Source: an uncultured Gemmatimonadales bacterium (GTDB lineage: Bacteria; Gemmatimonadota; Gemmatimonadetes; Palauibacterales; Palauibacteraceae). From it: a DNA stretch of 64,000 bases. This document shows positions 7,764 to 46,182 of this stretch, in pieces. The DNA is taken from assembly GCA_963783385.1 (NCBI GenBank), contig CAWANJ010000006.1:224001-288000 (forward strand), in the 5' to 3' direction. The notes below the pieces were generated by a model that was given only the letters and a program-made list of their open reading frames with translations, had not been told where the DNA came from and did not search any database. How positions within the stretch are numbered: the stretch's first letter is position 1; each line of letters begins with the position of its first letter. The position numbers and the translations under genes were made by a program.

Positions 7764-7787
7764 GCGCCGGCCGTCTTCTGAGCGCAT

Positions 7788-7815
7788 GGCCCGGCGGCCG
7801 GGCGGCCGCCGGGCC
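7788..7815. terminator. 12-bp hairpin between convergent genes
   Basis: GGCCCGGCGGCC-gggc-GGCCGCCGGGCC. Confidence 0.6.
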
Positions 7816-7820
7816 CGCGT

Positions 7821-8006: not shown

Positions 8007-8148
8007 CGCTTGTCTCCCTTCCGTTCGGCCGATGAGGGCCGCGTCACGGCCCGTCGCGGGCGCGTGACGCGGACCCTCCGCAGGGTTCGGACCGCCTGCT
8101 CGTGCAAGGGGCGCTCCGGAATCCCCGCCGGGCCCTCCGGCCGCCTCG

Positions 8149-25778: not shown

Positions 25779-25800
25779 GGCAACCCCTCACCCATGAAGC

Positions 25801-28119: not shown

Positions 28120-28129
28120 GGAGGCCCGC

Positions 28130-28468
28130 ATGAGCATCGAGGACCTTCGCGAGCAGGGGGTCCTGCTGCCGGAGGAGGAGTGGGGCGAGCACCGGCTCGA
28201 GACCACCGTCCCCCTGGTTCCCGTCGCCGTCGGTTACGTCACCGCCGTTCTCAGCCTGGTGGCCATGTACGTGGGCGGCGGCGGAACGCTCACGTGGATC
28301 GGGGCCGGCACCTTCCTGGTGGCGCTCTACACCCTGACCTGGATGTGCGACCGGGCCGTCCTCCGGCAGCGGACCCGCGTCCGGAGGGAGAGCGGCGGGG
28401 CGAGCGACGCGGAAACGGGACCCGGCGACGACGGAAGATCGTCCGGCGAGGGAGCCGGGGAGCCCTAG
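28130..28468 (+). CDS. Small two-TM hypothetical membrane protein
   Basis: GAGGAGG RBS; two hydrophobic helices. Confidence 0.65.
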   Translation: MSIEDLREQGVLLPEEEWGEHRLETTVPLVPVAVGYVTAVLSLVAMYVGGGGTLTWIGAGTFLVALYTLTWMCDRAVLRQRTRVRRESGGASDAETGPGDDGRSSGEGAGEP

Positions 28469-28536
28469 CGAGCGGAGGGCCGCCGGCCTAGCCTGCCCAG
28501 AGCGACGCGTGGCCCCCCGCCCCCCGAGGAGGACCC

Positions 28537-30921
28537 GTGGCCCACCAGAACCCCTCCGTCTCTTCGCGCCCCCCTTCCGCCCGGGTCACCGAGGAGCTCG
28601 ACCGCGAGCTCGGCCTGGGTGGCGCCGTGGCGCTGGGCGTCGGGACCATGATCGCCGCAGGCATCTTCGTCCTGTCGGGGCTGGCCGTGGCCAACGTGGG
28701 CGCCGCCGCCGTTGTCGCCTTCCTCATCGCGGCCGCCGTGGCCGCCTTCACGGCGGCGACCTACGCGGAGTTCGCGTCCATCTACCCCGAGAGCGGCGGC
28801 GGCTACATGTACGTGGCCAACGTCTTCGACTCGGACCTCACCTACCTGGTCGGCTGGGCGATGATCCTGGGCTATCCGGCCAGCGCGGCCTTCTACCTGG
28901 CCAGCTTCTCGGACTGGTTCTACCGGTTCCTGTATCCGGCCCTCGACATCCCCGAGGCCATCCCGTACTGGGTGTCGGGGCTCGTGCTCCTCGCGCTCCT
29001 CGTGGCGGTGAACGTCAAGGGCACGCGCGAAACGGGCCTGTTCCAGGTGATCGTCACGACGCTCAAGGTGCTGCTGATCGGCGTGTTCCTGTACGGAGGT
29101 CTCCGGGCCTTCGACGGGGACATCGTGATGACCTCACTGCGCGCCAACCTCCACGACCTCCCGCGGCTCGGCCTCACGAGCGCGCTCGTGTTCATCACCT
29201 TCTTCGGCTTCGAGGCCATCGCCACCAACGCCGAGGAGATCCGCAGCCCCGGCGTCACGATCCCGCGTGCCATCTTCATCAGCATGGGGGCGGTCACCGT
29301 CATCTACGTGCTCGTGGTTCTGGTCATCGTGGTCGCCGTGCACGACGGGGCCTTTCTCGAGTTCCTCGCGACGAAGGCGGGCCTGGGGAGCGCAGAGTCC
29401 GCGCGTCGTTTCGTGGCGGAGAACGGCGAGGTATCCATGGGGCGGGCGGCCCAGTACTACCTGGGCGACATCGGGTTCTACGTGGTGATCGTCGGGGCCC
29501 TCCTCTCCATGGTGTCGGCCGCCAACGCCACCATCATGGCGGGCTCACGCGTGAAGCTCGCCATGGCCCGCAGGCGCCACCTCCCCGCCTCGATCGAATC
29601 GGTCCATCCTCGCTTCCGGACGCCCCATCGGGCCGTGCTCCTCACCGGCGGCCTCATCCTGTGCTTCATCGTCGTGTTCACCGTGTTTTTCGGCGAGATT
29701 CCGGGGGCCCGATCGACCGGAGAGGGCTCCACGATCGAGCTCGGCATCGAGGCCGTCGCGCACTTCGCGGACTTCATGCTCCTGAGCGGGCTGATCTTCG
29801 TGAACCTGGCCCTGGTCCGGTCGCGGCGGGACGCCCCGGACATCCGGCGCCCCTTCCGCGTCCCCCTGGTTCCCTGGGTCCCCGTGGCGGCGGTGCTCGC
29901 CAACCTGGTCCTCCTCGTCAACGTCGAGAAGGTGAGCCTCGTGCTGGGCTTCCTGGCCCTCGGGGTCGGCGTCGTGTTCTGGTTCGGCTGGAAGTCGGTC
30001 CCGAAGAGCGCCGAGGAGATGGAGACCGAGACGCCCACGGCCATGGCGGAATATCGCTCGGCCCGGCGCGGCCACCAGCTCATGGTGGCGCTCGGGAATC
30101 CTGAGCACGCCGACTGGCTGATGGGAACGGCCACCGCCCTGGTGGGCGAGGGCGGCGGAGACCTCCTGGTCATGAGCGCGGTGCTGGTCCCGGACCAGAC
30201 GCCTCCCTCCGAGGGACGCAGGCAGGGTGAGAAGAACCGGGAGGTCCTGCAGCGTGCCCTGGGCCTGGCCGAGGAGGCCGGCGTCACGGCCGACGGGATG
30301 ATCCGAATCGCGCACCGCGCCCCCGACGCCATCCTGAACACCATACTCCAGCACGAGCCGCGCGCCGTGCTCCTGGGGTGGGACGGACGCATGCCGAGGG
30401 GACAGGACCTGTTCTTCGGCTCGATCGTCGACCGGATCCTGACCGAGGCGCCCTGCGACGTGTTCGTGGAGACGGCCGGCTCGGGGAAGGTCGCCGAGGC
30501 CGAGAGCCTCCTGCTTCCGACCGCCGGAGGCCCCCACGCGGAGCTGGCCCTGTCGACCGCCGCGGCCCTGGCCCGCAGGTCGGGGGGCCGGGTCGTGCCG
30601 GTGACCGTGGTGGACCCGGGTGCCTCCGGCGAAGAGCGACGCCGGGCCCGTGCCCTGCTGGACGGGGCCGCCGAACGGCTCGGGGAGACCGCGGGGGAGC
30701 CCCTGCTCCTCGAGGCCGAGGACGTGGCGGCGGCCCTCGTCGGAGAGAGCGCGCGGCACGACCTCGTCGTGCTCGGGGCCACGCACGAGGGCCGGCTGCA
30801 TCAGCTGGCGGTGGGCGCGATCCCCTACTCCGTGGCCGCGAAGAGCGACACGCCCGTGCTCATGGTCCGGCGCCGGCCCGGCGTGGCGTCACGCCTCCTG
30901 CGCCGCCTCCCCTGGCGCTGA
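28537..30921 (+). CDS. Second APC permease-USP fusion
   Basis: GTMIAAGIF, YAEFASIYPESGGGY, FFGFE; C-terminal LMVALGNP and LLLPTAGGPHA. Confidence 0.88.
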   Translation: MAHQNPSVSSRPPSARVTEELDRELGLGGAVALGVGTMIAAGIFVLSGLAVANVGAAAVVAFLIAAAVAAFTAATYAEFASIYPESGGGYMYVANVFDSDLTYLVGWAMILGYPASAAFYLASFSDWFYRFLYPALDIPEAIPYWVSGLVLLALLVAVNVKGTRETGLFQVIVTTLKVLLIGVFLYGGLRAFDGDIVMTSLRANLHDLPRLGLTSALVFITFFGFEAIATNAEEIRSPGVTIPRAIFISMGAVTVIYVLVVLVIVVAVHDGAFLEFLATKAGLGSAESARRFVAENGEVSMGRAAQYYLGDIGFYVVIVGALLSMVSAANATIMAGSRVKLAMARRRHLPASIESVHPRFRTPHRAVLLTGGLILCFIVVFTVFFGEIPGARSTGEGSTIELGIEAVAHFADFMLLSGLIFVNLALVRSRRDAPDIRRPFRVPLVPWVPVAAVLANLVLLVNVEKVSLVLGFLALGVGVVFWFGWKSVPKSAEEMETETPTAMAEYRSARRGHQLMVALGNPEHADWLMGTATALVGEGGGDLLVMSAVLVPDQTPPSEGRRQGEKNREVLQRALGLAEEAGVTADGMIRIAHRAPDAILNTILQHEPRAVLLGWDGRMPRGQDLFFGSIVDRILTEAPCDVFVETAGSGKVAEAESLLLPTAGGPHAELALSTAAALARRSGGRVVPVTVVDPGASGEERRRARALLDGAAERLGETAGEPLLLEAEDVAAALVGESARHDLVVLGATHEGRLHQLAVGAIPYSVAAKSDTPVLMVRRRPGVASRLLRRLPWR

Positions 30922-32322
30922 GCCGGTCCGCACCTCCCCATCTTCCGCGGGGTCGCCCGCCGTGCCCGCCTCCCCGCTCTTCTCCAGCACCCACTGCAGA
31001 GCCACGGGCCCGACGAGCTCGTGGATGGCGACCATGGCCACGAACAGCGTCCGGAGCTCCTCGCCCCAGCTCGGGAAGGATCGGGCCAGGATGGTGACCA
31101 TGCCGAGCGCCACGCCGGCCTGGGAGACGAATCCGAGCCACGCCCACCGGCCCACGGCGTCCGGCGAGCGCCCGACTGTGGCCCCCACGCGCGTCCCCGC
31201 CCACAGACCCGCAGCCCGCACGGCCACGAAGAGGAGGGCCCAGGTCCACAGGTCGGCCAGCTCGCTCAGGTGGACGGCGGCGCCGGCCAGGCTGAAGAAG
31301 AGCGCGTACAGCGGCAGCGAGGCGTTCTCGAGCGACTCGACGAAGCGTCCGCCCGCCACGGGCAGCAGGTTCTCGAGCGTGAAGCCCGCCGCGAGCCCCA
31401 CCAGGAGGAGCTCGAGGTGGAAGGTCGCGGCCAGCTCGGCCGCCAGCCACGCGAGACCGATGGCGAACAGCACCATCTGGCGGTCGACCCAGCGCAGGTA
31501 CGCCGCCACGCCAACGCCCAGCAGCCCTCCGGCGAGAAGCGAACCGCCGATCTCCGCCGCCAGTCCCAGCCCGAGTCCCGCCCCGGCGGTTCCTCCCGCG
31601 GGCTCCAGCACCGTATAGGCCACCGAGAGGGCGGCGGCGAACGCCACGATCACCAGGACATCCTTGACGACCGTGACGCCCAGGATGGTGGATGCGAGGG
31701 GACCCCGCGAGCGCGTGTCCGTGATCACGGCGATGGCCACCGAAGGGCTGCTCGCGATGGACACCGACCCGAACACGACCGCCACGGTCAGGACCAGGGG
31801 AAGGGGGCGACCGGCCGTGAAGGGGAGCCAGGCCGACAGGAGCAGGACCGCACCGGCCACGCAGGCGAACAGGATCGCGGTTCCCAGGAGGGAGATCGAG
31901 GCCAGGGACCGGCCCATCCCCCGCAGCTGGGAGACGCGGAGCTCCCCACCGGCCGTGAGGGCGATGAGCGCGATCGCAATGTCGTCGAAGAGCCGAAGGC
32001 GCTCGACGTCGGCGGGACGGAGCAGCCCCAGGGCGCCCGGGCCGACCAGCAGCCCCACGAGCAGGTAGCCGGTGACGCGAGACAGCCCCGCCAGCGAGGC
32101 CACCTGCCCGCCGAGGAACGCCGCCAGGAGCAGGAAGCCGAGCGCCATGGCCGTGTCGCCGGGGCCGGGACCGGCCACGGCCTCGTAGCTCCGAACCACC
32201 CACATGAGCCCCAGCAGCGCCGCCAGGGCGAAGGCACGTTGCGTGAGCTCGCGTCCGGCCACGTGGGATGGCTCCTGATCAGATCGGGGTGCGGATAGGG
32301 TCTTGTTCGCGGGGAGATCCAT
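30889..32322 (-). CDS. Cation:proton antiporter (Na+/H+ exchanger family)
   Basis: GYLLVGLLVGP, GGEL, SSPSV, VVKD, FFSLAGA, QAGVALG; start uncertain (32263-32322). Confidence 0.8.
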   Translation of the reverse strand: MDLPANKTLSAPRSDQEPSHVAGRELTQRAFALAALLGLMWVVRSYEAVAGPGPGDTAMALGFLLLAAFLGGQVASLAGLSRVTGYLLVGLLVGPGALGLLRPADVERLRLFDDIAIALIALTAGGELRVSQLRGMGRSLASISLLGTAILFACVAGAVLLLSAWLPFTAGRPLPLVLTVAVVFGSVSIASSPSVAIAVITDTRSRGPLASTILGVTVVKDVLVIVAFAAALSVAYTVLEPAGGTAGAGLGLGLAAEIGGSLLAGGLLGVGVAAYLRWVDRQMVLFAIGLAWLAAELAATFHLELLLVGLAAGFTLENLLPVAGGRFVESLENASLPLYALFFSLAGAAVHLSELADLWTWALLFVAVRAAGLWAGTRVGATVGRSPDAVGRWAWLGFVSQAGVALGMVTILARSFPSWGEELRTLFVAMVAIHELVGPVALQWVLEKSGEAGTAGDPAEDGEVRTGSAPGEAAQEA

Positions 32323-32365
32323 CTCTAGCCTCCCCGGCGTACGCCGCCCGCCCCCGCACTGGAGG

Positions 32366-33292
32366 ATGCCCGTGCCCGATTCCGAAGATGTTGGCTCCGG
32401 TCGCCCGCTGTTCCGCGACGACCTCCTGGAGGGACGCGTGGCCCTCGTCACCGGCGGCGGCACCGGGATCGGATTCGGAATCGCGCACTGTCTGGCACGC
32501 TACGGGGCGGACGTCGTTCTGGCGAGCCGCAGCCGCGATCACCTGGACCCGGCCGCCGAGGAGATTCGCCGCCGGACGGGGCGTCGCGTGCTGGCCGTGC
32601 CCGCCAACGTGCGCGAGCCGGACTCGATCCGCTCGGCCGCCGATCGCGCCGCCGAGGAGATGGGAGGCCTGCACATCCTGGTCAACAACGCGGCCGGGAA
32701 CTTCTACTGCCCCTCGGAGGAGCTCAGCCCCGGCGGCTGGCGAGCCGTCGTCGAGACGGACCTGTACGGGACTTTCTTCGCCTCGCAGGCCGCGTTTCCG
32801 CACATGCGCGACGCGGGCTTCGGGCGCATCGTCTCGGTATCGATGACCCTCCACCATCGTGGCTGGCCGGGCATGGCCCACGCGACCGCGGCCAAGGCGG
32901 GCGTGGACGCCCTCACCCGTACGCTGGCCCTGGAGTGGGGAGGCCACGGCATCACTGTGAACGCCGTGGCTCCGGGGCCCATCCCCACCGAGGGCGTGCG
33001 CAGGGCGTTCAGCGGCGGCCGCAGTGGAGACGCAGCCGGCGGCGAGGGCCGACCGGACCCCTTCGCCGGCAGTCGCCACGCGGAGGCGTACGCTCGCCGC
33101 ACCGTCCCCGTGGGCCGGCTCGGAGACCCGGCGGACATCGGGCACATGGTCACCTACCTCGCCTCCCCCGCCGGCGACTGGATCACCGGTTCCATCTTCG
33201 TCGTGGACGGAGGAGAGCGGCTGCTGCGCGGACCGCCTCCCTCCGTGCCGGGCGAGGGCCGGTCGGATCGGCCGGGCCGGACCGATCAGTAG
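32366..33292 (+). CDS. SDR oxidoreductase, 2,4-dienoyl-CoA reductase-like
   Basis: TGGGTGIG, NNAAGNF, HATAAKAGV (His replaces the catalytic Tyr), APGPI. Confidence 0.85.
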   Translation: MPVPDSEDVGSGRPLFRDDLLEGRVALVTGGGTGIGFGIAHCLARYGADVVLASRSRDHLDPAAEEIRRRTGRRVLAVPANVREPDSIRSAADRAAEEMGGLHILVNNAAGNFYCPSEELSPGGWRAVVETDLYGTFFASQAAFPHMRDAGFGRIVSVSMTLHHRGWPGMAHATAAKAGVDALTRTLALEWGGHGITVNAVAPGPIPTEGVRRAFSGGRSGDAAGGEGRPDPFAGSRHAEAYARRTVPVGRLGDPADIGHMVTYLASPAGDWITGSIFVVDGGERLLRGPPPSVPGEGRSDRPGRTDQ

Positions 33293-34278
33293 CCGAAGCT
33301 GACGCCAGCGCTGACCACGTTGTAGGAAGACTGCGTATAGGCGGCCGTGAGCTTGACGATGAGGAAGTCGAGGCTGAAACCGGCCACCAGCCGACTGGAG
33401 TTGTCCCCCTGGTCGTGCACCGTCTCCCGGAGCCGGTCTCCGGGCAGGTTGGGGTTGTCGATCGTGTAGCGGATGGTGACGTCGGAGTGCTCGAGCTCGC
33501 CGGCCGCGAACAGGCTGAGGACCGAGAAGTCACGTCCCACGATCAGCGCCGCGTTGCGCGCCGATCCGGTGAGATAGTCTCCGACGTGAATGGACTGCAG
33601 ACCGCCCTCCACGGCGACGTCGATGGGGAAGTCGGGGAACCAGTGCGTCACCGAGTGCTTGAGCCCCACCCCGAACGATCTCACCGCGCCCAGGTCCTGG
33701 TCCACGGTGATGGAGGGCAGCCAGCGCACCGTGACCTCGTTGCCGAAGGGCAGCCCCGCCCGGGCCTGGATGACCGCCATGGGGATGGCCGGGATGTCGT
33801 AGCCGTCCGGGAAGGGCAGGGCGTAGGAGGAGGGATCCCCCCCCGCCGCGATCAGCGCCTGTCGAAAATCGCCCCGGGGATCGATCGTGACCCCCTTGCC
33901 CGGTCCCACGGCCGTCGGGGTGGCGGGTCCCGGCCCGGCGCCGTAGGGATCCCGGTACAGGCGGCCCTGGAAGGTGAGCGTGTCGGGGAGGGTCGGCCGG
34001 AACGTGTTGTCCACGTTCGGGACGAACGCGCCCATCGCGGCGATCCCCACGTCGAAGTGGAGGGGCGCGTGCACCCGTGCGCTGCGGTACCAGCTCGAGT
34101 TGAGCGAGGCCCCGAGGCCGGTGGCGACCGGGTGCAGATAGAGCCTGGCGTCCCGGGCGGCCAGCAGCTGGATGGCCTTCGACACCCCCTGGGCCCGGAG
34201 GCCGCTCGCCGCCCCAACCAGGAGGAAGAAGGCCGTCACCAGGACCTTCCGCGCCCGCCATCGTGTTCGCATGCCCAA
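33286..34278 (-). CDS. Putative outer-membrane beta-barrel protein (DUF6588-like)
   Basis: Signal peptide, YLHP..G.G..LNSSWY.SA, G.GLKHS, C-terminal aromatic SFGY. Confidence 0.6.
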   Translation of the reverse strand: MGMRTRWRARKVLVTAFFLLVGAASGLRAQGVSKAIQLLAARDARLYLHPVATGLGASLNSSWYRSARVHAPLHFDVGIAAMGAFVPNVDNTFRPTLPDTLTFQGRLYRDPYGAGPGPATPTAVGPGKGVTIDPRGDFRQALIAAGGDPSSYALPFPDGYDIPAIPMAVIQARAGLPFGNEVTVRWLPSITVDQDLGAVRSFGVGLKHSVTHWFPDFPIDVAVEGGLQSIHVGDYLTGSARNAALIVGRDFSVLSLFAAGELEHSDVTIRYTIDNPNLPGDRLRETVHDQGDNSSRLVAGFSLDFLIVKLTAAYTQSSYNVVSAGVSFGY

Positions 34279-34570
34279 CCTCGCACCTCGTCAGCCGGAC
34301 CTCCCGGTCCGGGTGCCGCGTCTCCGGACGCGCGACCCGCGTCCGCTATACCCGTGCGGCTCCCTGCCGGAACCTGGGGGGCTCCGCCGGGCGACGCCAA
34401 GGTAACGCGACGCTCGCGAGCCCGAACAGTGCTGTGGACGGGAGGAACGGGACATGCGAGTCGTCGCCGTGTATGGGGTGCTCGGAGAGGGCTTTCCGCC
34501 CCACACGCTCCGCGGCCGACCGGTCTGAGCTCGCCGCGGTGACAGATCCGCCAACGGGAGGCGACGCGCC

Positions 34571-34855
34571 ATGCCCTACACCGTCGTTCGGGAACACGTC
34601 GGCAACTACGCTCGGTGGAGGCGGGCCTTCGAGGACCACGAGGGGTCGCGCGAGGAGGCGGGCTCGCGCGGCGGGCACATCTTCCGGTCCTCGGAGGACC
34701 ACGATGAGATCGTGGTCTTCCTGGCCTGGGAGGACCTGGATCGGGCCCGGAAGTACCTGGACTCCGAGACCGTACGCGAGGAGCGGGAGGCGGGCGAGGT
34801 GGAGGGCGACCCGGACGTACTCTACCTGGAGGAACTGGGTCGACCGGCCGCCTGA
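34571..34855 (+). CDS. Small dimeric alpha/beta-barrel (cyclase/ABM-like) protein
   Basis: HV.NY.RW..AF....R..AG, EIVV...WEDLDRA; GGGAGG RBS. Confidence 0.7.
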
Positions 34856-34914
34856 GCGCCGGGACGTCAATGTGCGAAGATGCGCCGGGAGCGTGGCCGA
34901 TGCGTGAGGACACG

Positions 34915-35367
34915 ATGACGAACGAGCGTGGCGAGCGGGATCTCGCCGGCGTCTCCGAGGACGAGTGGAGGCGGCGGCTCACCGAGGAGCAGTTCCGCGT
35001 GACCCGAAAGGCGGGGACGGAGCGTCCCTTCACCGGCGTCTACGTGGATACCGAGACTCCTGGCGTGTACCGGTGCGTGTGCTGCGAGGCGGAGCTGTTC
35101 CGCTCGGAGACCAAGTTCCACTCCGGCTCCGGGTGGCCGAGCTTCGCCTCGCCCGCGAACCGGGCCGCCGTGACCACGAGGGAAGACGAGAGTCACGGTA
35201 TGCGCCGGACGGAGGTCCTGTGCGCCCGTTGCGGCGCGCACCTGGGACACGTCTTCCCGGACGGACCCGCGCCGACCGGGCTGCGCTATTGCGTGAACTC
35301 CGTGGCCCTCGACCTGGACGCCGACGACCCGGACTCGGGAGGCGGGTCGGCCCCGGAAGCGTCGTGA
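34915..35367 (+). CDS. msrB: Peptide-methionine (R)-S-oxide reductase
   Basis: [38 protein letters not shown]. Confidence 0.95.
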
Positions 35368-36509
35368 GCACTGGCGACGCCGGGCCGGAATCCGCGGACG
35401 CGGGAGCCGCCGAGAGCGAGCCGGCGGCGGCCAACGGACCTCCGCTCGAGCTCCTGGACGGGGCCGTGCCCGACCCCGAGGCGCTCGTCTCCGCGCCGGA
35501 GGAGCTGTGGGCCCGCGCGGGCGATCCGCGGATTCCCCTCAAGGCACGGCTCGAGGCGTTCGAGGACCTGACCGACGCGGAGGTGGGCGATACGTCCCTG
35601 GTGCGGGCCCGCAACCTGGAGCGGGAGTTCGGCCTCCGGCAGCTCTACCTCAAGTTCGAAGGCGGGAATCCCACCGGTACGCAGAAGGACCGGATCGCCT
35701 TCGCGCAGGTCCAGGACGCGCTGCGCCTGGGCTACGAGGGCGTCACCGTGGCCTCGTGCGGCAACTACGGGGCGGCCGTGGCACTGGCGGCCTCCCTGGG
35801 AGGTCTGCGCTGCGTCGTGTTCATCCCGGAGGGTTATCGGACCCGCCGCCTGCAGGAGATCGAGGGCCGTGGAGCGGAGATCGTGCGCGTGCCCGGTGAC
35901 TACGAGACGGCGGTCGACGTATCGCGCGAGCGCGCCGCCGAGGAGGAGCTGTACGACGCCAACCCGGGTGGCGCCAACACGCCCCTGCAGCTCCGGGCCT
36001 ACGGGGAGATCGCCCGGGAGATCTTCGACGAGCTCCGGGACGCACCGGCCATCGTCGCCCTGCCGGTGTCCAACGGCACGACCCTGGCCGGCGTGTACCG
36101 CGGCTTCGCCAGCCTGTACCGGCGCGGAAAGACGTCGCGCATGCCGAAGGTGGTGGCGGGCTCCTCACCGGCGAAGAACCCGATCGTGCGCTCATTCCAG
36201 AAGGAACTGCCCACCTGCGAGGACCTGGACCCGGCCAAGGTTCGGGAGACGGCGGTCAGCGAACCCCTCATCAACTGGCACTCCTCCGACGGGGACGAGG
36301 CGCTGAAGGCGGTGCGGGCCACCGGAGGCTGGGCGGACGACGCCAGCGACCGGGAGATGATCGCCTACGCGCGGCTCGTGCGGGAGAAGGAGGGCCTCCA
36401 GGTGCTGCCGGCCTCGACCGCCGGGCTCGCCGTGCTGATCGACCGGCACCGCGAGGAGCCGCTGCCGGGCGACCGCTACGTGGCCGTGCTGACGGGGAGG
36501 CGCGCGTGA
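35364..36509 (+). CDS. Fold-type II PLP enzyme, threonine-synthase-like
   Basis: [15 protein letters not shown] (PLP Lys), ASCGNYG, PVSNGTT, PAST; GTGA overlap with msrB. Confidence 0.85.
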
Positions 36510-37609
36510 GCGAGGGAAGCTGGCCCGAGGGTCGCGCGATCGTCTTCTGCGAGGGCGCGTTCGGCACGCCTTACGGGAAGACCGCCCATGGCCTCGTGCG
36601 CCGGACGGCGCGCTACGAGATCGTGGCCGTCGTCGACTCGGCCCTGGCCGGACGCGACGCGGGCCAGACGCTGGAGGGGCGCGCCCGCGGCATCCCGGTA
36701 GTCGCCGACATCGACGCGGCGGTGGCCGACGCCCGGGCGCACGGCCGGCTCGCCACGCACCTCGTCATCGGCCTCGCGCCCGATGGAGGACGCCTTCCCC
36801 CGGAGGGCCGCGAGGCCGTCCGGCGCGCCCTCTCCCTGGGGCTGGACGTGGACTCGGGCCTGCACGACTTCCTGGGCGAGGACCCTGAGCTGGCCGCGCT
36901 CGCCGCCGAGCACGGCGCCCGCATCCGCGACGTCCGCCGGCCACCACCCCGCTCCGAGCTCCACTTCTTCAGCGGCGCGATCGAGAAGGTGGGCAGCTTC
37001 CGCGTCGCGCTCCTCGGCACGGACTCGGCCGTCGGCAAGCGCACCACCGCCTGGCTCCTGGTGGACGCGCTCCGGGAGGCCGGCCTGTCCGCCGAGCTCA
37101 TCGGGACCGGCCAGACGGCCTGGATGCAGGGAGCCCGCTACGGACTGGTGCTCGACTCGATCGTGAGCGACTTCGTCTCCGGCGAGATCGAACACGCCGT
37201 GTGCAGGGCGTGGGAGGAGCGGCATCCCCGCGTTCTGGTCCTGGAGGGGCAGGGGAGCCTCATGAATCCGGCCTACCCGGGCGGCTTCGAGCTCCTGGCG
37301 GCGGGCCGGCCGCACGCGGTCGTGCTCCAGCACGCACCGCGCAGGCTGGAGTACGACGGCTTTCCCGGTTACGCGCTCCATCCCCTGCCGCGGCAGATCC
37401 AGGCGATCGAGATCATCTCCGGCGTCCCGGTCGTGGCCGTGACCGTGAACCACGAGGGCATGGAGCCCGACGAGGTTCCCGAGGCCTGCCGGGCTATCGA
37501 GGAGGACACCGGCCTGCCGACCGTGGACGTTCTCCTGGAGGGCGCGGACCGGCTCGTGGAGGTCCTGCGGCCGCTCACCGAAGCGCACGGAGACGCCGGG
37601 GCCACGTGA
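36506..37609 (+). CDS. DUF1611 / DgcN-like P-loop protein (putative D-Glu N-acetyltransferase)
   Basis: GKTAHGLVR, SGLHDFL, GTDSAVGKRTT, GTGQT, EGQGSL. Confidence 0.88.
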   Translation: MSEGSWPEGRAIVFCEGAFGTPYGKTAHGLVRRTARYEIVAVVDSALAGRDAGQTLEGRARGIPVVADIDAAVADARAHGRLATHLVIGLAPDGGRLPPEGREAVRRALSLGLDVDSGLHDFLGEDPELAALAAEHGARIRDVRRPPPRSELHFFSGAIEKVGSFRVALLGTDSAVGKRTTAWLLVDALREAGLSAELIGTGQTAWMQGARYGLVLDSIVSDFVSGEIEHAVCRAWEERHPRVLVLEGQGSLMNPAYPGGFELLAAGRPHAVVLQHAPRRLEYDGFPGYALHPLPRQIQAIEIISGVPVVAVTVNHEGMEPDEVPEACRAIEEDTGLPTVDVLLEGADRLVEVLRPLTEAHGDAGAT

Positions 37610-37640
37610 GCGCTCGGTCGGTCGGCCGGCGCGAGGCGTA

Positions 37641-39269
37641 GTGAGCGGCGACCCGCTGGCGCCGCTGCGCGCCTTCGACCGGCTCGAGGTCGGCCCCGTG
37701 CGCCTCGAGCGGCGGCGGCTGTCGGCGCCCTACACGGTCGTGCTGGGCCGACGCCGGGAGACGACAGAGCTCCTGTACCGCTACGAGGAAGACGCTTTCG
37801 AGCCGGAAGCCGCATCCGACCGCAACCTGGCCTCCCTCATCGCGGCGCAGGTGGCGCTCAACTACGGGCTGTTCGCGGACGAGATCGTCCTGCACGGACC
37901 GCTGGACGAGGCGGACCGCCGGTTCCTGGGCGCCATGGCGGAGAACACCGCCCGCGAGATCTACGTCAAGAAATTCCTCGAGCCCAACCCCTTCCTGGTG
38001 GGCGAGGCCCGGTCCCTCCCGGCGGTACGGAGAGAGCGCTTCCTGAGGGCTCGGCTGCTGTTTCCCGAGGGAGTCGAGACACCCGTTCGGGACGATGTCT
38101 GGGGAACGGGCGCAGGGGCCGCCGGGGGGAACGCCTCGGCGGCCGTCCGGAACGCCGTGCTGGCCAGCGGGGGAAAGGACAGCCTCCTGACCCAGGGCCT
38201 CCTCGAAGAGATCGGTCCCCCGCCCCTGGCCGCGTTCGTCAACGAGTCCGGACGCCACTGGTTCACGGCGATGAACGCCCATCGGCATCTGGCGGCGACC
38301 CGATCGGAGCGCACCGCTCGCGTGTGGACCAGCTCGGACCGGGTGTTCGCGTGGATGCTGGGACGACTTCCCATGGTTCGCCCCGACTTCGCGCGCGTCC
38401 GGTCGGACGAGTATCCGGTGCGGCTGTGGACGGTGGCCGTGTTCCTGTTCGGCGTGCTCCCGGTGCTCCGCCGACGTGGGGTGGAGCGCATCCTGATCGG
38501 TGACGAGTTCGACACTTCGCGCCGGCTCCATCACCGGGGGATTCCGCACTACGATGGGCTCTACGACCAGAGCGTGTGGTTCGACGCCGCCCTGACCCGC
38601 TACTACGGGCGCAAGGGCTGGCCGCTGCAGCAGCTGTCCATCCTCCGACCGCTGTCCGAGCTGCTCATCCAGGGGATCCTGGCCGCCCGTTACCCGGAGC
38701 TCCACGCCTGCCAGGTCTCCTGCCACGCCGCCCACATCGAGGATGGCCGGGTACGCCCCTGCGGCCGGTGCGAGAAGTGCCGGCGCATCGTGGGAATGCA
38801 CCTGGCCCTGGGGGCCGAACCGGCGGTATGCGGGTATACGGAGGAGCAGATCGAGGCCTGCCTGGAGGCGCTGGCGCGCCGACCCGTGCACCAGGAGGCG
38901 GCGGGCGCCGCCCACATGCTGTGGCTGCTGGAGCGCCGGGGACTGCTGCCCGGACCGGGCGGGAAGCCGGCCGCGAGGGCAGGAAGGGGCGGCGGAGCGG
39001 ACGTCCCGGCGCCCTCGGAGCATCCCGAGGTGGTCCGGCTCCGCTTCCACCCCGATCTCAGTCCTGCCGTGGGCTTGCCTCCGGACCTGCGCGAGCCCCT
39101 GTTGCGGGTCTGGCTCGAGCACGCCGAGGGAGTTTTGACGCGGCGGGGTGGGCGGTGGGAGCCCGTAGAGCCCGCCGACCTCCTGTCGGCCCTCCGTTCC
39201 CCGGACCGACAGGAGGTCGGCGGCGAGCGGGTCGACACGACGACGGACGACGAAGGGACGAAACCGTGA
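37641..39269 (+). CDS. Uncharacterised PP-loop (adenine nucleotide alpha-hydrolase) protein with Cys cluster, MurL/QueC-like
   Basis: LASGGKDS PP-loop; SCH...CGRCEKC. Confidence 0.7.
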   Translation: MSGDPLAPLRAFDRLEVGPVRLERRRLSAPYTVVLGRRRETTELLYRYEEDAFEPEAASDRNLASLIAAQVALNYGLFADEIVLHGPLDEADRRFLGAMAENTAREIYVKKFLEPNPFLVGEARSLPAVRRERFLRARLLFPEGVETPVRDDVWGTGAGAAGGNASAAVRNAVLASGGKDSLLTQGLLEEIGPPPLAAFVNESGRHWFTAMNAHRHLAATRSERTARVWTSSDRVFAWMLGRLPMVRPDFARVRSDEYPVRLWTVAVFLFGVLPVLRRRGVERILIGDEFDTSRRLHHRGIPHYDGLYDQSVWFDAALTRYYGRKGWPLQQLSILRPLSELLIQGILAARYPELHACQVSCHAAHIEDGRVRPCGRCEKCRRIVGMHLALGAEPAVCGYTEEQIEACLEALARRPVHQEAAGAAHMLWLLERRGLLPGPGGKPAARAGRGGGADVPAPSEHPEVVRLRFHPDLSPAVGLPPDLREPLLRVWLEHAEGVLTRRGGRWEPVEPADLLSALRSPDRQEVGGERVDTTTDDEGTKP

Positions 39270-40117
39270 CCGACGAGCGGAGCTGGCGCCTGGGCGCCAT
39301 GACGTGGCGAGAAGCGGGCGAGCGGCTGCGGGCCTGCGACGTGGCCCTCCTCCCCACGGGGGCCGTCGAGCAGCACGGCCCCCACCTCCCCCTGGACACC
39401 GACCTGTTCCACGCGGAGCGCATGTGCCGGGACGTGGCCCTCGCCTGCGGCGAGCCGTTCCCGCTGGTGCTGCCGGCCATCCCGTTCGGCGTCTCGTACC
39501 ACCACGACGACTTTCCGGGGACCCTCAGCGTGAGCGCCGAGACGCTGGGCCGCTACGTGTTCGAGGTCGGCCGGGCCCTCGCCCACCAGGGGATCCACAA
39601 GCTGGTGATCGTCAACGGCCACGGCGGCAACGCCCCCGCCTTGCAGACGGCGGCGCAGCGGGTGCACCGGAAGACCGGCATGTTCGTGTGCGTGGACACG
39701 GGGGAGACGAGCGACGTGGACGTGGAGGCCCTCGCCGAGACGCCGGGCGACATCCACGCCGGGGAGATCGAGACCAGCGAGGCGCTCTACCTCCGCCCCG
39801 ACGACGTGCGGGCCGAGCGGCCCGGGCTCTCCGTGCCGCGGTTCGCGGTGGAGGCACTGGACGAGGGCGGGCCCCGATCCATTCCCTGGTTCTCTCGGAC
39901 CTCGCGCTTCTCCGCGGAGGGAGTCCTGGGCGACCCCTCCAGGGCCACGGCCGAGAAGGGGCGGCGCATGTGGGAGGTGCAGGTGGAGCGGCTGGCCGAC
40001 CTGGTCACGGGACTCCGCGGCAGGAGCCTCGAGGAGCTCCGCCTGGACGCGTCGGGAGACGGCTCGACGGCTCCGCCCGGCGGGCCCGTGCCGACGCCCA
40101 CGTCCGAGGGCCGGTGA
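39266..40117 (+). CDS. Creatininase/MftE-family amidohydrolase
   Basis: GAVEQHGPHLPLDTD, NGHGGN, HAGEIETS; GTGA overlaps on both sides. Confidence 0.9.
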   Translation: MTDERSWRLGAMTWREAGERLRACDVALLPTGAVEQHGPHLPLDTDLFHAERMCRDVALACGEPFPLVLPAIPFGVSYHHDDFPGTLSVSAETLGRYVFEVGRALAHQGIHKLVIVNGHGGNAPALQTAAQRVHRKTGMFVCVDTGETSDVDVEALAETPGDIHAGEIETSEALYLRPDDVRAERPGLSVPRFAVEALDEGGPRSIPWFSRTSRFSAEGVLGDPSRATAEKGRRMWEVQVERLADLVTGLRGRSLEELRLDASGDGSTAPPGGPVPTPTSEGR

Positions 40118-41175
40118 GGATCACCCGCGTCGAGGCGTGGCGGGCCGACCTCCCGCTGCGCGAGCCCTACCGGATCGCGTACGAGACCATCGACCGCTGC
40201 GAGACCGCGTTCGTGCGGCTGGTCACCGACGGTTACGCCACCGGCGTGGGGTGCGGTACGGCCGATCCGGCCATGACGGGCGAGACGACCCGCGACACGG
40301 TCCAGGCGCTGGAGGACGTCGTCCGTCCGCTTCTCGAGGGCGAGGACCCCCTGCGGCCCGCCCACCACCTGCACCGGCTCCGCGAGCCCCTGGCCGGCCG
40401 GCCCGCCGCGCGCGCGGCCGTCGACCTGGCCCTGCACGATCTCCTCGGCCGGGCGGCCGGACTGCCGCTGTGGCGCATCCTGGGCGGCTTCCGCGAGACC
40501 ATTCCCACCAGCATCACGATCGGGATCCTGCCCGCCGACGAAACGGTGGAGCGTGCCGAGGAGCTGGTCGGCCGCGGCTTCCGCTGTCTGAAGATCAAGG
40601 GTGGCGACGATCCCGAGGTCGACGCGGAGCGGGCGCTCAGGGTCCGGGAGGCGGTGGGGCCGGACATCGAGCTCCGATTCGACGCCAACCAGGGTTACAC
40701 CGTGGAACAGGCGGTCCGCTTCGTCGAAAGGGTGCGCGGCGCGCGTCTCGAGCTCCTCGAGCAGCCGACCCCGGCCGGCGAGCCCGCGCTCCTTGGGCGA
40801 GTGACCGCGGAGGTGCCCCTCCCGGTGATGGCCGACGAGAGCCTGCGGAGCCTCCTCGACGCCTACCGCCTGGCGCACGGCGAGCTGGCCGACATGCTCA
40901 ACGTGAAGCTCCAGAAGGTGGGCGGCCTGGCCGAGGCGCTGCGCATCAACGCCGTGGCGCGCGCCGCAGGGCTGGAGGCCATGGTCGGCTGCCTGGACGA
41001 GCCCGCGCTCGGGATCGCCGCGGGCCTGGCCTTCGCCCTCGCCGTCCCCAACGTGATGTACGCGGACCTCGACGGACACCTGGACCTGGCCGAGGATCCG
41101 ACGGCCGGCGCCGTCGTTCTGGAGGACGGCCTGCTCCGACCCACCGATCTGCCGGGGCTCGGCTGGAGCGGTTGA
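40114..41175 (+). CDS. Enolase-superfamily dipeptide epimerase (L-Ala-D/L-Glu epimerase / DgcA-like)
   Basis: KIK, DANQG, EQP, ADE, NVKLQK, DLD. Confidence 0.9.
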   Translation: MRITRVEAWRADLPLREPYRIAYETIDRCETAFVRLVTDGYATGVGCGTADPAMTGETTRDTVQALEDVVRPLLEGEDPLRPAHHLHRLREPLAGRPAARAAVDLALHDLLGRAAGLPLWRILGGFRETIPTSITIGILPADETVERAEELVGRGFRCLKIKGGDDPEVDAERALRVREAVGPDIELRFDANQGYTVEQAVRFVERVRGARLELLEQPTPAGEPALLGRVTAEVPLPVMADESLRSLLDAYRLAHGELADMLNVKLQKVGGLAEALRINAVARAAGLEAMVGCLDEPALGIAAGLAFALAVPNVMYADLDGHLDLAEDPTAGAVVLEDGLLRPTDLPGLGWSG

Positions 41176-41205
41176 CCGGCTCCGCGTCCCGACCGCGGAA
41201 GGGCG

Positions 41206-41727
41206 CTACTCGCCACCCATCCACAGGTCCATGGTGTCGACGTCCTGCCCCTGCAGCTTGAGGTAGTAGAACAGCTGCCCCTTGTGCTGCCCCAGGTGCC
41301 AGACGCACTCGTAGCAGTGCTGCACCAGGGCGCGCTCCTCGCCTCCCCACGGCGTCGTGCTGCGCTCGTTCAGGAGGCGGTCGTCGTCCACGTCCGCCAG
41401 GAGCTCCAGGGTCAGCGCCCGGTCCGCGGCCAGGAGCCGGAGCGCCTCGTCCACGCTCGCCACCGACGGGAGCATCTCGGCGGTGGGCATCTCCAGCTCC
41501 CCACCCGCCTCCTCCAGCGCCTCCCCATACTCGCCCCAGTCGCCCGTGAGGAACCCCCGGAGATTGGCTCCGCATGCCTCCGTGCAGTGCCTGAGCAGCT
41601 GCCCGGTGCTCATCCAATTGTGGCCGGTGGCCGGCTTCCAGGCCAGGTCGTCCACCCGGCGAAAGAGACCCTCGGCGGCCCGGTACGTGGCCCGGGCATC
41701 CTGCTGCAGGCTCTCGGACAGGCTCAT
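41206..41727 (-). CDS. DinB/DUF664 family protein
   Basis: WKP...WMSTGQLLRH, H..QHKGQLFYYLKL. Confidence 0.8.
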   Translation of the reverse strand: MSLSESLQQDARATYRAAEGLFRRVDDLAWKPATGHNWMSTGQLLRHCTEACGANLRGFLTGDWGEYGEALEEAGGELEMPTAEMLPSVASVDEALRLLAADRALTLELLADVDDDRLLNERSTTPWGGEERALVQHCYECVWHLGQHKGQLFYYLKLQGQDVDTMDLWMGGE

Positions 41728-41952
41728 GGCTCGCGCTCCCGGTTCGGCGTCGACCATCCATCGACGCGTGCTCGCGTGATCCGGCCGCCCGAGGAGGCGG
41801 CCCATAGTTGACCCGAACATACACCGAAGATCCGCGGCGCGTCAACGTCTCCTTTCGAAGAGATCGGGGGTGTCACGCGGTTGCCACCCCCGACGCTTCG
41901 GTATACGATCCGCGCCGTATCCGAAACATCAGTATATCAAGGAGGCCACACG

Positions 41953-44900
41953 ATGCGCCGTCCGGGCTCCACGCCATCGAATTTCCTCTTTCATCGATAT
42001 TCTCTCGCGTCCCTGACCGGCGCCCTCCTCCTGGTCGCCTCGCTCTCCCTCCCCGCCGGACCGGCCCTGGCCCAGGCGAAGGGTGGGAATCGTGCCGCCG
42101 CCGCGGAGACGGGCGCGATCCACCAGCCCGGCCACATCGTGTACGATACGTCGCTCTACGCCGGGCTCCAGTACCGGATGATCGGTCCGTTCCGCGGCGG
42201 GCGCGCGACGGCCGTGGCCGGCGTCTCCCAGAAGCCGCACACGTTCTACTTGGGTGCGACGGGCGGCGGCGTGTGGAAGACGGAGGACGCGGGCCAGCAC
42301 TGGGACAACGTCTCGGACGACTACTTCCACGTGGGCTCGATCGGCGCCATCACCGTGGCGCCTTCCGACCCGGACGTCGTGTACGTGGGGACCGGCTCGG
42401 CCGACATCCGCGGCAACGTCTCCACCGGCAAGGGCGTGTACCGCTCCACCGACGGAGGGAAGAGCTGGAGCTTCGAGGGCCTGGAGGACGCCGGCCAGAT
42501 CGGCGACATCGTCGTCAGCCCCCGGGACCCGGACCTGGTCTACCTGGCCTCGATCGGCCATGCCTTCGGCCCCAACCCGACGCGCGGCGTGTTCCGCTCC
42601 AGGGACGGCGGCAAGACCTGGCAGAAAGTGCTGTTCGTGTCGGACTCGACCGGGTTCATCGACCTGGCCATGGATCCCAACAACCCCCGGGTGCTCTACG
42701 CCGCGGCGTGGCAGACCGAGCGCAAGCCGTGGACGATCGTCAGCGGCGGCCACGAGGGCGGGATCTGGAAGTCCACCGACGGCGGAGACCACTGGACCAA
42801 GCTGGGAGGCGGCCTGCCCACCGGCCTCGTCGGCAAGGCATCGGTGACCGTGTCGCCGGCCGACCCCGACCGGGTGTGGGTGCTCATCGAGGCCTCACCG
42901 ATCGACAAGGGGGGCGTGTACCGTTCGGACGACGCCGGCAAGACGTGGAGGCAGACCTCCCACTCCCACGACCTCACCCAGCGGGCGTTCTACTACATTC
43001 ACATCTTCGCCGACCCGAAGGACCCGAATACCGTCTACGCCCTGAACACGAGCCCGTACCGGTCGATCGACGGGGGCAAGACCTTCACCCGGATCCGGGT
43101 CCCGCACGGGGACACGCACGACTTCTGGATCAACCCGGAGCACCCCGACTACCTGGCCATCGCCGATGACGGCGGGGCGCAGGTCTCCCTGACGCACGGA
43201 AAGACCTGGAGCACCTACTACAACCAGCCCACGGCGCAGTTCTACCGGGTGATCACCGACAACGGCTTCCCGTACCGCGTGTATGGGCCCCAGCAGGACA
43301 ACAGCACCATCAGCGTCCCGGCCTGGTCGCCCGGCACCGGACGGCTGACCCCGCAGGGAGAGTGGGTCACCGTGGGCGGCGGGGAGAGCGGCTACATCGC
43401 CCTCGACCCCGACCACCCGAAGCTGAGCTACGCCGGTAGCTACGGCGGCGACATCGACCGGATGGACCGTGAGACCGGACAGGGCCAGAACGTGGTGGCC
43501 TATCCCCAGCTCGCCCTCGGCGAGGCCGCGAAGGACCTGAAGTACCGGTTCCAGTGGAACGCGCCCATCCTCATGTCGAAGTTCGACTCCAGCGTCGTCT
43601 ACCACGCCGCCCAGTACGTGCTGAAGACGACGAACGGGGGGCAGAGCTGGACCCGGATCAGCCCGGACCTCACCCGCGACGACACCGCCAAGCAGGTGCT
43701 GGCCGGGAAGCCGATCGAGTCGGAGGAGACGGGAGTCGAGGTGTACGGGACGATCTTCGCGCTGGCCGAGGGGACCGAGTCGCCGGACGTCCTGTGGGCG
43801 GGCTCGGACGACGGGCTCGTGCACCTGACCCGCGACGGCGGCAAGACCTGGAAGGACGTGACGCCCCCGGGCCTGCCCGCCTACTCCACCGTCAACGTGA
43901 TCGCCCCCTCGCCCCACCAGGCGGGCCAGGCGTACGTCACCGCCTACCGCTACCGGATGGACGACTGGCACCCCTACGTCTACGAGACGAAGGACTGGGG
44001 GGCCCACTGGACCCGGATCGCCGACGGCACGCGGGGCATCCCGGCGGGAGACCCGGTGCGGGTGGTGCGGGAGGACCCGGTCCGGGCGGGGCTGCTGTAC
44101 GCGGGCACCGAGTTCGGGATGTACGTCTCCTTCGACGACGGGGCCCACTGGCAGACGCTGCAGCAGAACCTGCCGCCGGTGCCGGTCACCGACCTCACGG
44201 TGCACGGGCTCGGACCTGGTGCTGGCCACCCAGGGGCGGAGCTTCTGGATCCTGGACGACGTGACCCCGCTCCGGCAGCTCACCGGCGCGGTGGCGAAGG
44301 CCGACCACTACCTGTTCGAGCCCCGAGCCGCATACCGCGCCAACATGGGCCGCGGCTTCGGCGGAGGGGACCGGCCCACCCCGCCCCCCAGCGGCGCCAT
44401 CCTCGACTACTACATGGCCAGGAAGCCCGACGGGCCGGTGAAGCTCGAGATCATCGACCCCTCCGGGAAGACCGTGCAGACCTTCTCGAGCAAGAAGAAG
44501 GAGGAAGAGGGCGAGCCGTCAGAGCTCGCCGCCTTCTTCGGCGGTGGCCGCAGCCGGCCGCTGCCCGCCTCGGAGGGCATGCACCGCTACACCTGGAACC
44601 TCCGCTATCCCGGCGTCCACACCTCGAAGGGCGCGGTCGTGTGGGGCTACACGGGCGGCCCGCAGGCCGTGCCGGGCACGTACACCGCGAGGCTGATCGT
44701 CGGCTCCGACACGACCAGCCGGAGCTTCGACGTGAAGCCCGACCCGCGCTGGCGGGGCGTGACGCACCAGGACCTGGTCGAGCAGTTCGAGCTCGCCGTG
44801 GCCATGCGTGACACCCTGAACCACGTGTACGGCAGGATCGACGCCCTGCGCTCAGCCCGCGGGCAGGTGAAGGCCGCCGAGAAGCGGGCGAAGGACGCCG

Positions 44901-45461: not shown

Positions 45462-45920
45462 CTAGCAGCCCGAGCCCGGCGAAGTCTGCACGATGTGCCC
45501 CGCCCCGTCGTCCGTGTTCACGCACCACCACGACGAGGAGACGTCGTGGCCGGCGGTGGCCACGTAGCCGTTCCCCTGCACCGAGACCCCTCCGTTGATG
45601 CCCGAGCTGGCCCGCACCAGGATGTTCCCGTTGGCGTCCACGATGGGCGCCCCGGACCCGCTCTGGGTTCCGGCGCTGTAGCTGGAATAGTCGTAGAAGT
45701 ACGACTCCTCGGCCGTCATGAGATTGCGGAGGTCGCTCTTGGCCGATGCGTCGAACGCCTTTTCCTTGGTCGATGCGAACTGCGGTATCGCGATCGCGGC
45801 CAGGATGCCGATGATCACGACCACGATGAGCAGCTCGATCAGGGTGAAGCCGGCCGCCCCGCGCCACCCGGCGCGGTCCGCCCGTCCCAGCCTGGTCTTG
45901 AGGCTCTTCACGGTGGACAT
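45462..45920 (-). CDS. Type IV pilin (class III signal peptide)
   Basis: AAG|FTLIELLIVVVIIGILAAIAIPQF, KSDLRNL..AEESY, C-terminal Cys pair; AGGAG RBS. Confidence 0.9.
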   Translation of the reverse strand: MSTVKSLKTRLGRADRAGWRGAAGFTLIELLIVVVIIGILAAIAIPQFASTKEKAFDASAKSDLRNLMTAEESYFYDYSSYSAGTQSGSGAPIVDANGNILVRASSGINGGVSVQGNGYVATAGHDVSSSWWCVNTDDGAGHIVQTSPGSGC

Positions 45921-46182
45921 CGTGTCTCCTGTCGCAGTCATTTCGAAGCGTGGTATCACCCGTCTGGAAGCGACCCCGGCAGGGAAGGGGGCAAGACACA
46001 AGCCCCCGCAACGAGTGGGGGTGTATAACCTTCTTCGGTGGCGTTAGTTAGAGGAACGCCACAGGCCCGAGGCGAGAGCGGAATAGAGGGCGCGCGCCGT
46101 TGCACTTGTCCACACCCGTTGCGTCCTGCGGGCGACCTCCGGGACGCCGCCGGGCGGGCCCCGAACGGGTCCGAGTCGAGCC

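Follow-up and report, generated by a model that had tools for sequence, protein, structure and literature searches.

A conserved gene cassette with a PP-loop enzyme at its hub that probably uses ATP to alter a small amino acid or dipeptide

The window analyzed here is a stretch of 64,000 nucleotides from an uncultured Gemmatimonadales bacterium (assembly GCA_963783385.1, contig CAWANJ010000006.1, positions 224,001 to 288,000), and the subject of this report is a cassette of five genes on its + strand. In order, these encode a ThrC-like fold-type-II pyridoxal phosphate (PLP) enzyme of the PRK06381 family (35364..36509; PF00291, 193.9 bits), a DUF1611 protein with DUF1611_N (PF17396, 90.6 bits) and DUF1611 (PF07755, 208.9 bits) domains (36506..37609), a 542-residue PP-loop protein with an SGGKDS PP-loop and a C...CxxCxxC cysteine cluster (37641..39269), a creatininase-family metal-dependent amidohydrolase (39266..40117; PF02633, 245.9 bits, above the cut-off of 31.3), and an enolase-superfamily epimerase of the dipeptide-epimerase type with MR_MLE_N and MR_MLE_C domains (40114..41175). 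Read directly from the DNA, the start and stop codons of neighbouring genes overlap as GTGA at 36506, 39266 and 40114, and the DUF1611 and PP-loop genes are separated by 31 bp (37610-37640). An original prediction for this DNA had described five co-oriented genes joined by GTGA overlaps with a single 31-bp gap, and the window sequence agrees with that layout; all five genes lie at the predicted positions on the + strand. The start of the PLP gene is uncertain, as its first ~25-50 residues are not conserved among relatives.

One genome per species was scanned for related loci, which gave 557 confirmed loci, and the best 80 of these were analyzed further; the presence of each family in these 80 loci was scored by tblastn with the five window proteins. 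The PP-loop protein has a match in all 80, the creatininase-type hydrolase in 77, the DUF1611 protein in 74, the PLP enzyme in 72 and the epimerase in 66. The full set of five families occurs in 57 of the 80 loci, and in every one of those 57 they are colinear and on one strand. When attention is confined to the 58 loci that have at least 2.4 kb upstream and at least 2.3 kb downstream of the PP-loop match, 50 are complete, and the gaps among the 58 concern the epimerase (7), the DUF1611 protein (4) and the creatininase (1). The five-gene arrangement is thus conserved far beyond chance. The original prediction had proposed a gene-neighbourhood search for the five families and had treated a lack of joint conservation as fatal; the joint conservation is there, in 57 of 80 loci.

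The usual form of the cassette is nevertheless not that of the window. The PP-loop and creatininase parts share one open frame in 74 of 77 loci, and they are split only in the window and in its three closest relatives (L001-L003). In a quick maximum-likelihood tree of the PP-loop proteins, with branch support given as the Shimodaira-Hasegawa-like approximate likelihood ratio test (SH-aLRT), these four form one clade with 100% support. Since the split is found in four assemblies that are 70-87% identical in the PP-loop protein, it is a real gene fission and not a sequencing error, and since the fusion is found in 74 of 77 loci, the five-gene form in the window is a lineage-specific split of what is usually a four-gene operon. 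The predicted five-gene operon is therefore correct as a reading of the window, but the usual form has four genes. A predicted complex of the split PP-loop and creatininase pair scored 0.00 and 0.00.

Other relatives join the PP-loop protein to other partners. Two proteins that are 31-33% identical to the window PP-loop protein (P0155 and P0168) are likewise PP-loop::creatininase fusions, one of 855 aa (P0125) is a DUF1611::PP-loop fusion, and one of 825 aa that is 58% identical to the window protein (P0123) has a C-terminal S-adenosylmethionine-dependent methyltransferase domain at the usual place of the creatininase. In two more (P0010 and P0044) a RidA domain (TIGR00004, 2.7e-27) occupies the hydrolase position. 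Fusions to creatininase, DUF1611, methyltransferase and RidA thus make the PP-loop enzyme the hub of the system, and not, as had been predicted, one of two extra enzymes. In two loci (L013 and L049) the creatininase part is missing, and ~88 nt past the epimerase gene there is a NIF3/DUF34-like gene whose product may stand in for the hydrolase. A reduced form with the PLP gene and the PP-loop::creatininase gene only is found in five Desulfobacterales loci (L033, L038, L057, L062 and L063); because these five form one 100%-supported clade within the full cassettes, the reduced form is a derived loss. Two of them (L057 and L062) are by label from the same metagenome bin, which suggests a duplicated reduced cassette in one organism. 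A 1762-aa single gene model in a "eukprot" entry (P0122) contains all five parts in the usual order with a truncated DUF1611 P-loop domain, and it probably reflects the merging of several bacterial genes into one model within a eukaryote data set, a natural fusion being less likely.

The window PP-loop protein is made up of an N domain (residues 1-160), a PP-loop core with the SGGKDS motif, the four-cysteine cluster and a C-terminal domain. It belongs to no Pfam family at E<=0.01, and the QueC family PF06508 does not match it at E<=1 and matches 12 of 27 relatives weakly (best E 0.0044). The MurL model NF041275 matches it at 19.6 bits (E 2.6e-4), below the 700-bit cut-off, and also matches 27 of 27 members of the PP-loop family (best 1.6e-8), all far under that cut-off; MurL clusters likewise account for 27 of 30 named matches in the ESM Atlas (score 0.96). 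The AlphaFold2 (AF2) model of the protein has a mean predicted local distance difference test score (pLDDT) of 87.2 and a predicted template modelling score (pTM) of 0.89, and its best Foldseek matches are QatC (1.9e-6), Cap9 (2.6e-4) and QueC (3bl5; 1.5e-3, TM(target) 0.71), at an identity to QatC, Cap9 and QueC of only 14-18%. The SGGKDS PP-loop and the cysteine cluster are conserved over 81 sequences, and the features expected of a QueC-like fold are all found. By sequence profile and model, then, the enzyme has a QueC fold, is a distant relative of MurL and is a predicted ATP pyrophosphatase. The N domain alone (residues 1-165) was modelled by AF2 at a pLDDT of 86.9, and a wide VIA fold search with it found no clear match: the best Z was 5.3, and the generic RNase-H-like or ASKHA-like rows fall within the noise range. 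The family as a whole is large: of the 8000 candidates that were scored, at least 2961 are relatives at E<=0.001, and at 50% identity it comprises 389 clusters at E<=1e-3, 221 at E<=1e-10 and 112 at E<=1e-30. MurL itself is, in a review (PMC8788868), an ATP-dependent one-way epimerase described as without known domains, for which adenylation of the alpha-carboxylate followed by epimerization and hydrolysis is proposed.

The closest solved relatives of the epimerase are the dipeptide epimerases 3rit (2.5e-67), 3jva (6.9e-63) and 1jpm (2.9e-62), all in full-length alignments. Its KxK motif, second lysine, D/E/D residues and DLD motif align with those of 1jpm, 3rit and 3jva and are at least 98% conserved in 60 cassette sequences. 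In dipeptide epimerases KxK and the second lysine are catalytic, the D/E/D carboxylates are metal ligands and DxD binds the substrate ammonium group; judged by alignment, the dipeptide-epimerase catalytic set is intact. At the position of 1jpm Arg24, which in the 20s loop of L-Ala-D/L-Glu epimerase binds the glutamate side chain, the window enzyme and at least 80% of the 60 relatives have Glu. The enzyme is under every NCBIfam equivalog cut-off, including those of the L-Ala-D/L-Glu epimerase models NF011708 (111.7 against 343 bits) and NF041118 (A_G_epim_Thtga, its best, 192 against 500) and that of DgcA (NF042940, 159.5 against 400). With Glu in place of Arg24, its substrate is probably not glutamate. 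The creatininase-type hydrolase has the motifs EQHGPHLPLD, NGHGGN and HAGEIETS, which are conserved among relatives. Its best named relative is the MftE peptidase (TIGR03964), at 152.9 bits against a cut-off of 172, and it scores 100.9 against 235 with creatininase proper (TIGR04448); a role as an amide hydrolase or deacylase is plausible from this kinship.

The DUF1611 protein combines a Rossmann-like N domain and a P-loop domain with the motif GTDSAVGKRT, and it scores above both Pfam cut-offs. Across 68 aligned sequences this motif is conserved; it resembles the P-loop of dethiobiotin synthetase, so that a nucleotide-dependent activity is also possible. The best solved relatives are the uncharacterised 2g0t (1.8e-43), 2obn (7e-38) and 7xrj (1.3e-34), and 2g0t is nearer than 7xrj. 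With the DgcN model NF041892 the protein scores 163.9 bits, under the cut-off of 480. In NCBIfam and PMC10845958, DgcN (NF041892) is an N-acetyltransferase and DgcA (NF042940) an N-acetyl-D-Glu racemase. The cassette protein is a candidate DgcN-like acyl-transfer or nucleotide-dependent enzyme. A second, solitary DUF1611 gene lies elsewhere in the same genome (G000:C1:425060-425734; locus L101, ~8004-9100, - strand), where it adjoins an AI-2E-family transporter gene and a PspA/IM30 gene and has no epimerase gene beside it.

The PLP enzyme scores 425 bits, above the cut-off of 266, with NF004996 (PRK06381), a model that carries the name threonine synthase and for whose name we saw no experimental basis; with the threonine synthase model TIGR00260 it scores 111.3 bits against 167.1. 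Its closest solved relatives are threonine synthases (E 1e-27 to 1e-32), and in alignment with the Thermus thermophilus enzyme 1uim the PLP lysine K61 is kept, and T88, N154, S155 and R160 are replaced by Y, G, A and Q. These four residues form the phosphate site of threonine synthase. A genuine threonine synthase is encoded elsewhere in the genome of the window (474.8 bits against a cut-off of 303), and in 14 control genomes no protein exceeds the PRK06381 cut-off. The cassette enzyme is an extra paralogue and is probably not a threonine synthase. Housekeeping threonine synthesis by this gene was rejected because the true ThrC is present in the genome.

The cassette is carried by members of more than ten phyla, among them Gemmatimonadota, Acidobacteriota, Thermodesulfobacteriota, Planctomycetota, Ignavibacteriota, Latescibacterota, Krumholzibacteriota, Zixibacteria and Calditrichota, where the phyla are those of the assembly labels, and bin labels can be wrong. 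The full set is present in three cultured Desulfosarcina species (L029, L041 and L077), all of them non-pathogenic, and cassette DNA is present in salt-marsh, sediment and some soil metagenomes. It is rare in the phylum of the window, whose own genome (3.54 Mb in 9 contigs, 92% complete) is one of 3 among 301 sampled Gemmatimonadota genomes that have the PP-loop gene; the other two copies are 59-60% identical. In the PP-loop tree the 7 Gemmatimonadota rows need 6 changes, of which well-supported branches force at least 4, and as few changes were obtained in 91 of 500 label shuffles, so the Gemmatimonadota rows are not clustered beyond chance. The clade of the window is placed with 8 Acidobacteriota rows in a 97%-supported set. 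The rarity within the phylum and the scattered Gemmatimonadota copies fit repeated horizontal transfer of an accessory cassette, of which the tree alone is no proof. A homologue of the PP-loop protein labelled Thermoplasmatota (P0138, 39% identity) lies on a 5-kb metagenome contig, where its neighbours are a PAS sensor gene and a GNAT gene on the opposite strand, and none of the other four cassette families is present on that contig.

In the window the PLP gene is joined by an additional GTGA overlap, at 35364, to an upstream gene for MsrB, a methionine-R-sulfoxide reductase (34870..35367, + strand; PF01641, E 4.3e-51), which is itself preceded by a gene of the ABM (antibiotic biosynthesis monooxygenase-like) family (34571..34855, + strand; PF03992, E 4e-6). 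By tblastn, MsrB is present in only 3 of the 80 related loci (L001-L003) and the ABM gene in 2 (L001 and L002), and both are therefore local, lineage-specific additions outside the conserved cassette. A convergent DinB-family gene lies downstream. The G+C content of the region is ~71-74%, and there are therefore many spurious open reading frames (ORFs). A promoter and terminator scan of 34000-42000 found no sites within the gene block, a result that is weakly informative at 71% G+C. Rfam gave no match at E<=1 in 32000-43000 of the window, and in six related loci just a tRNA at the gathering score. In 4 of 69 loci a sigma-54 -24/-12 consensus was found in the 500 nt that precede the PLP gene, and it is absent upstream of that gene in the window; sigma-54 control is not a general feature of the cassette. 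Farther out, the block is flanked by a DUF6588 gene (33286-34278, - strand) and a gene for a 976-aa BNR/Sortilin-Vps10 repeat protein (41881-44811, + strand). Beyond these, at 25798-30921 on the + strand, are two tandem genes whose products (773 and 794 aa) join an APC-family amino-acid permease to universal stress protein (Usp) domains and which are separated by a 117-aa ORF; at 45462-46001 and 46183-49320, both on the - strand, lie respectively a gene whose product has an N-methylation motif like that of type IV pilins and a gene for an AcrB-type pump. Of the 80 related loci, 6 have a comparable permease-Usp gene upstream of the cassette.

The genes that flank the cassette in the 80 loci were counted after their ORFs had been clustered, and only cluster representatives were scanned with Pfam. 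No flanking family is general across these loci, the most frequent being sigma-54 activators (17 of 80). YitT/DUF2179 membrane proteins follow in 11, directly downstream on the same strand at a median distance of 55 nt, and smaller DUF5698/DUF2179 proteins are found in 6; CorA and MgtE are each present in 6, CNNM and DHH each in 5, and MscS in 4. GroES is present in 9 loci, GroEL in 8, and Hsp20 and DksA in 5 each. Peptide transporters, peptidases and catabolic regulators are not recurrent beside the cassette in the 80 loci, and mur genes are not recurrent there either. In one locus with the reduced cassette (L033) a RimK-type ATP-grasp ligase, its usual Zn-protease partner and an AstE/aspartoacylase-family deacylase are encoded divergently upstream (5509-8301, - strand), and members of this Zn-protease family are found close to the cassette in 4 of the 80 loci.

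What might such a set of enzymes do? We consider an ATP-dependent modification of a small amino acid or dipeptide the probable task of the cassette. The more specific reading that we favor, to which we assign a probability of roughly 40%, is that it would combine acyl transfer, ATP-dependent carboxylate adenylation, epimerization and amide hydrolysis on a non-acidic amino acid or dipeptide, with the PLP enzyme making or consuming the amino acid. The cassette would thereby edit the stereochemistry at the alpha-carbon of a small amino acid that is non-acidic and is held in an N-acyl or dipeptide-like form. The DUF1611 enzyme would attach that acyl or aminoacyl group, much as DgcN uses acetyl-CoA, and the enolase-type enzyme would interconvert the L and D forms of the residue with the free carboxylate. 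The MurL-like PP-loop enzyme might then adenylate that carboxylate with ATP and so make the conversion directional, and the tethered creatininase-type metallohydrolase could cleave either an activated or cyclic intermediate or the acyl-amide bond. The ThrC-like PLP enzyme, for its part, may make the amino acid by beta or gamma replacement or remove it by elimination. Several kinds of evidence count for this scheme. The five families are jointly conserved and colinear, and the hub is fused to the creatininase domain in 74 of 77 loci and in the distant P0155 and P0168, and to DUF1611 in P0125. Glutamate is probably not the substrate, and the PLP enzyme is probably not a threonine synthase. The nearest named relatives (MurL, the dipeptide epimerases, DgcN and DgcA) all act on an amino acid with an acylated amine and a free carboxylate, and the active-site motifs of the hub, the epimerase and the creatininase, as well as the PLP lysine, are conserved over 60-81 sequences.

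Several observations weigh against stereochemical editing. Beyond the identity of the families, its steps are ones that we infer from relatives. To have both an enolase-type and a MurL-like epimerizing enzyme in the same route appears redundant, unless one of the two acts otherwise. The best fold matches of the hub, QatC, Cap9 and QueC, are amide-forming enzymes and not epimerases. The RidA domain that stands in place of the hydrolase in two relatives points to an enamine/imine or ammonia step for which the scheme has no need, and the hydrolase is replaced by a methyltransferase in another (P0123). The two-gene Desulfobacterales form also counts here, and so does 3rit, which likewise has Arg at position 24 although its structure was reportedly determined with a cationic dipeptide; specificity is therefore not fixed by position 24 alone, and Glu there is a hint against glutamate and no proof of a basic substrate. 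Because of the apparent redundancy, the amide-forming fold matches and the unexplained RidA and methyltransferase fusions, amide-forming biosynthesis is the main rival explanation. According to it, the hub, acting like QueC, Cap9 and QatC, would adenylate a carboxylate and couple it to ammonia or an amine, and the product would be an amino-acid amide, a dipeptide or a lactam, possibly a solute for stress or osmoprotection; the amine or ammonia would be supplied, or a protecting group trimmed, by the tethered hydrolase (or by RidA with the PLP enzyme), and the epimerase would set the D-centre. A PP-loop synthetase with an amide-hydrolyzing domain is the usual amidotransferase design, and the RidA fusions resemble the PP-loop plus RidA architecture of the diphthamide-amidating enzyme Dph6. 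The recurrence of DUF2179 genes (11 + 6 of 80 loci) and of ion and stress genes beside the cassette, where peptide transporters, peptidases and catabolic regulators are not recurrent, speaks for a solute as well, as does the occurrence in salt-marsh and sediment metagenomes; yet each neighbour family is present in at most 17 of the 80 loci, a weak context signal. At the level of sequence, moreover, the kinship of the hub is with MurL, an epimerase, and we know of no solute that matches the enzyme set of the cassette. An enolase-type epimerase also requires a free carboxylate beside the abstracted proton, and the amidated group would therefore not be that carboxylate. On balance we regard amide formation as somewhat less likely than stereochemical editing.

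The remaining explanations tie the cassette to glutamate or deny it a common function. The DUF1611 protein, the epimerase and the hydrolase might simply be the known DgcN-DgcA-DgcH route of D-glutamate catabolism, with the PLP and PP-loop genes as passengers, and DgcN and DgcA are indeed among the named NCBIfam matches. This is very unlikely: the two proteins fall far under the DgcN and DgcA cut-offs, the PP-loop gene lies between the DUF1611 and hydrolase genes and is fused to either of them in relatives, all five families travel together, and the epimerase has Glu at the Arg24 position. The original prediction had allowed for a pair that works only as standard DgcN and DgcA, and the scores (163.9 against 480 and 159.5 against 400 bits) indicate that the pair is not a standard one. 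The distant relationship of the hub to MurL could also be taken to mean that the cassette provides peptidoglycan with D-glutamate, or with another D-residue, as an alternative source of the MurD2/MurL type. However, the genome of the window has a glutamate racemase, MurI (TIGR00067), well over its cut-off (250 against 146.65 bits), the PP-loop gene is present in only 3 of 301 genomes of the phylum, mur genes are not recurrent beside the cassette, and the MurL score is 19.6 against 700 bits; we give this explanation hardly any credence, and a supply of D-Glu for the cell wall in particular was rejected because MurI is present. The muropeptide and D-Glu versions of the original prediction are weakened by this racemase and by the Glu at the Arg24 position. 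As for mere chance adjacency of genes that share no function, the identical order and strand in 57 of 57 complete loci under more than ten phylum labels, the fusions of neighbour genes and the start/stop codon overlaps leave it with a negligible probability.

The cassette brings together five enzyme activities for which no product has been described, it includes an unnamed family of 389 clusters at 50% identity, and it recurs nearly unchanged in hundreds of mostly uncultured sediment bacteria. Its solution would give DUF1611 a role outside D-glutamate catabolism, MurL-type ATP-dependent chemistry a second function and the creatininase fold a new partner, and it might reveal a new D-amino-acid or amide metabolite with a bearing on how carbon and nitrogen turn over in marine and salt-marsh sediments. 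More speculatively, the PP-loop::creatininase protein could found a new adenylate-forming class, either as an ATP-driven "chiral ratchet" that, with a reversible enolase-type epimerase, would drive an amino acid irreversibly to the D form, or as a fourth PP-loop amidotransferase architecture with a creatininase-fold donor; the product would then be a D-amino-acid-bearing small molecule whose genes have spread horizontally in sediment bacteria of more than ten phyla. With cultured Desulfosarcina species among the carriers, the question is open to bench testing.

The original prediction knew of no characterized pathway with this combination of enzymes, and we found no description of the gene set in the searchable literature, which misses ~1.7 million PubMed Central articles and most subscription papers. 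The cassette can nevertheless be set beside several known systems. With the Dgc route it has in common a DUF1611 protein, an enolase-superfamily racemase or epimerase and an amide hydrolase, and possibly a logic of acylating, inverting and deacylating; it differs in that its hydrolase has the creatininase fold, in that the MurL-like ATP-dependent enzyme and the PLP enzyme are obligatory extra members, in that its scores are far under the DgcN and DgcA cut-offs, and in that its substrate is probably not glutamate. The hub is a distant sequence relative of MurL, and carboxylate adenylation is by analogy likely to be common to the two; however, the hub is tethered to a creatininase-type hydrolase, which is not mentioned for MurL in the accessible text of PMC8788868, and the cassette has no MurD2 or mur context and a host with its own glutamate racemase. 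QueC, Cap9 (of CBASS) and QatC (of QatABCD) have the same PP-loop fold, SGGxDS motif and four-cysteine cluster, whereas the hub has extra N- and C-terminal domains and lies in neither a queuosine nor a defence context. The dipeptide epimerases 3rit, 3jva and 1jpm (YkfB) share their catalytic set with the cassette enzyme, which is in a different operon and has Glu at the place of Arg24. Metal motifs are common to the cassette hydrolase and the creatininase family (MftE, creatininase, ArfB and IolN), but the cassette domain is under the cut-offs of all four and is usually a domain of the PP-loop protein. Finally, the PLP enzyme has the fold and the PLP-lysine motif of threonine synthase, with the residues of the phosphate site replaced.

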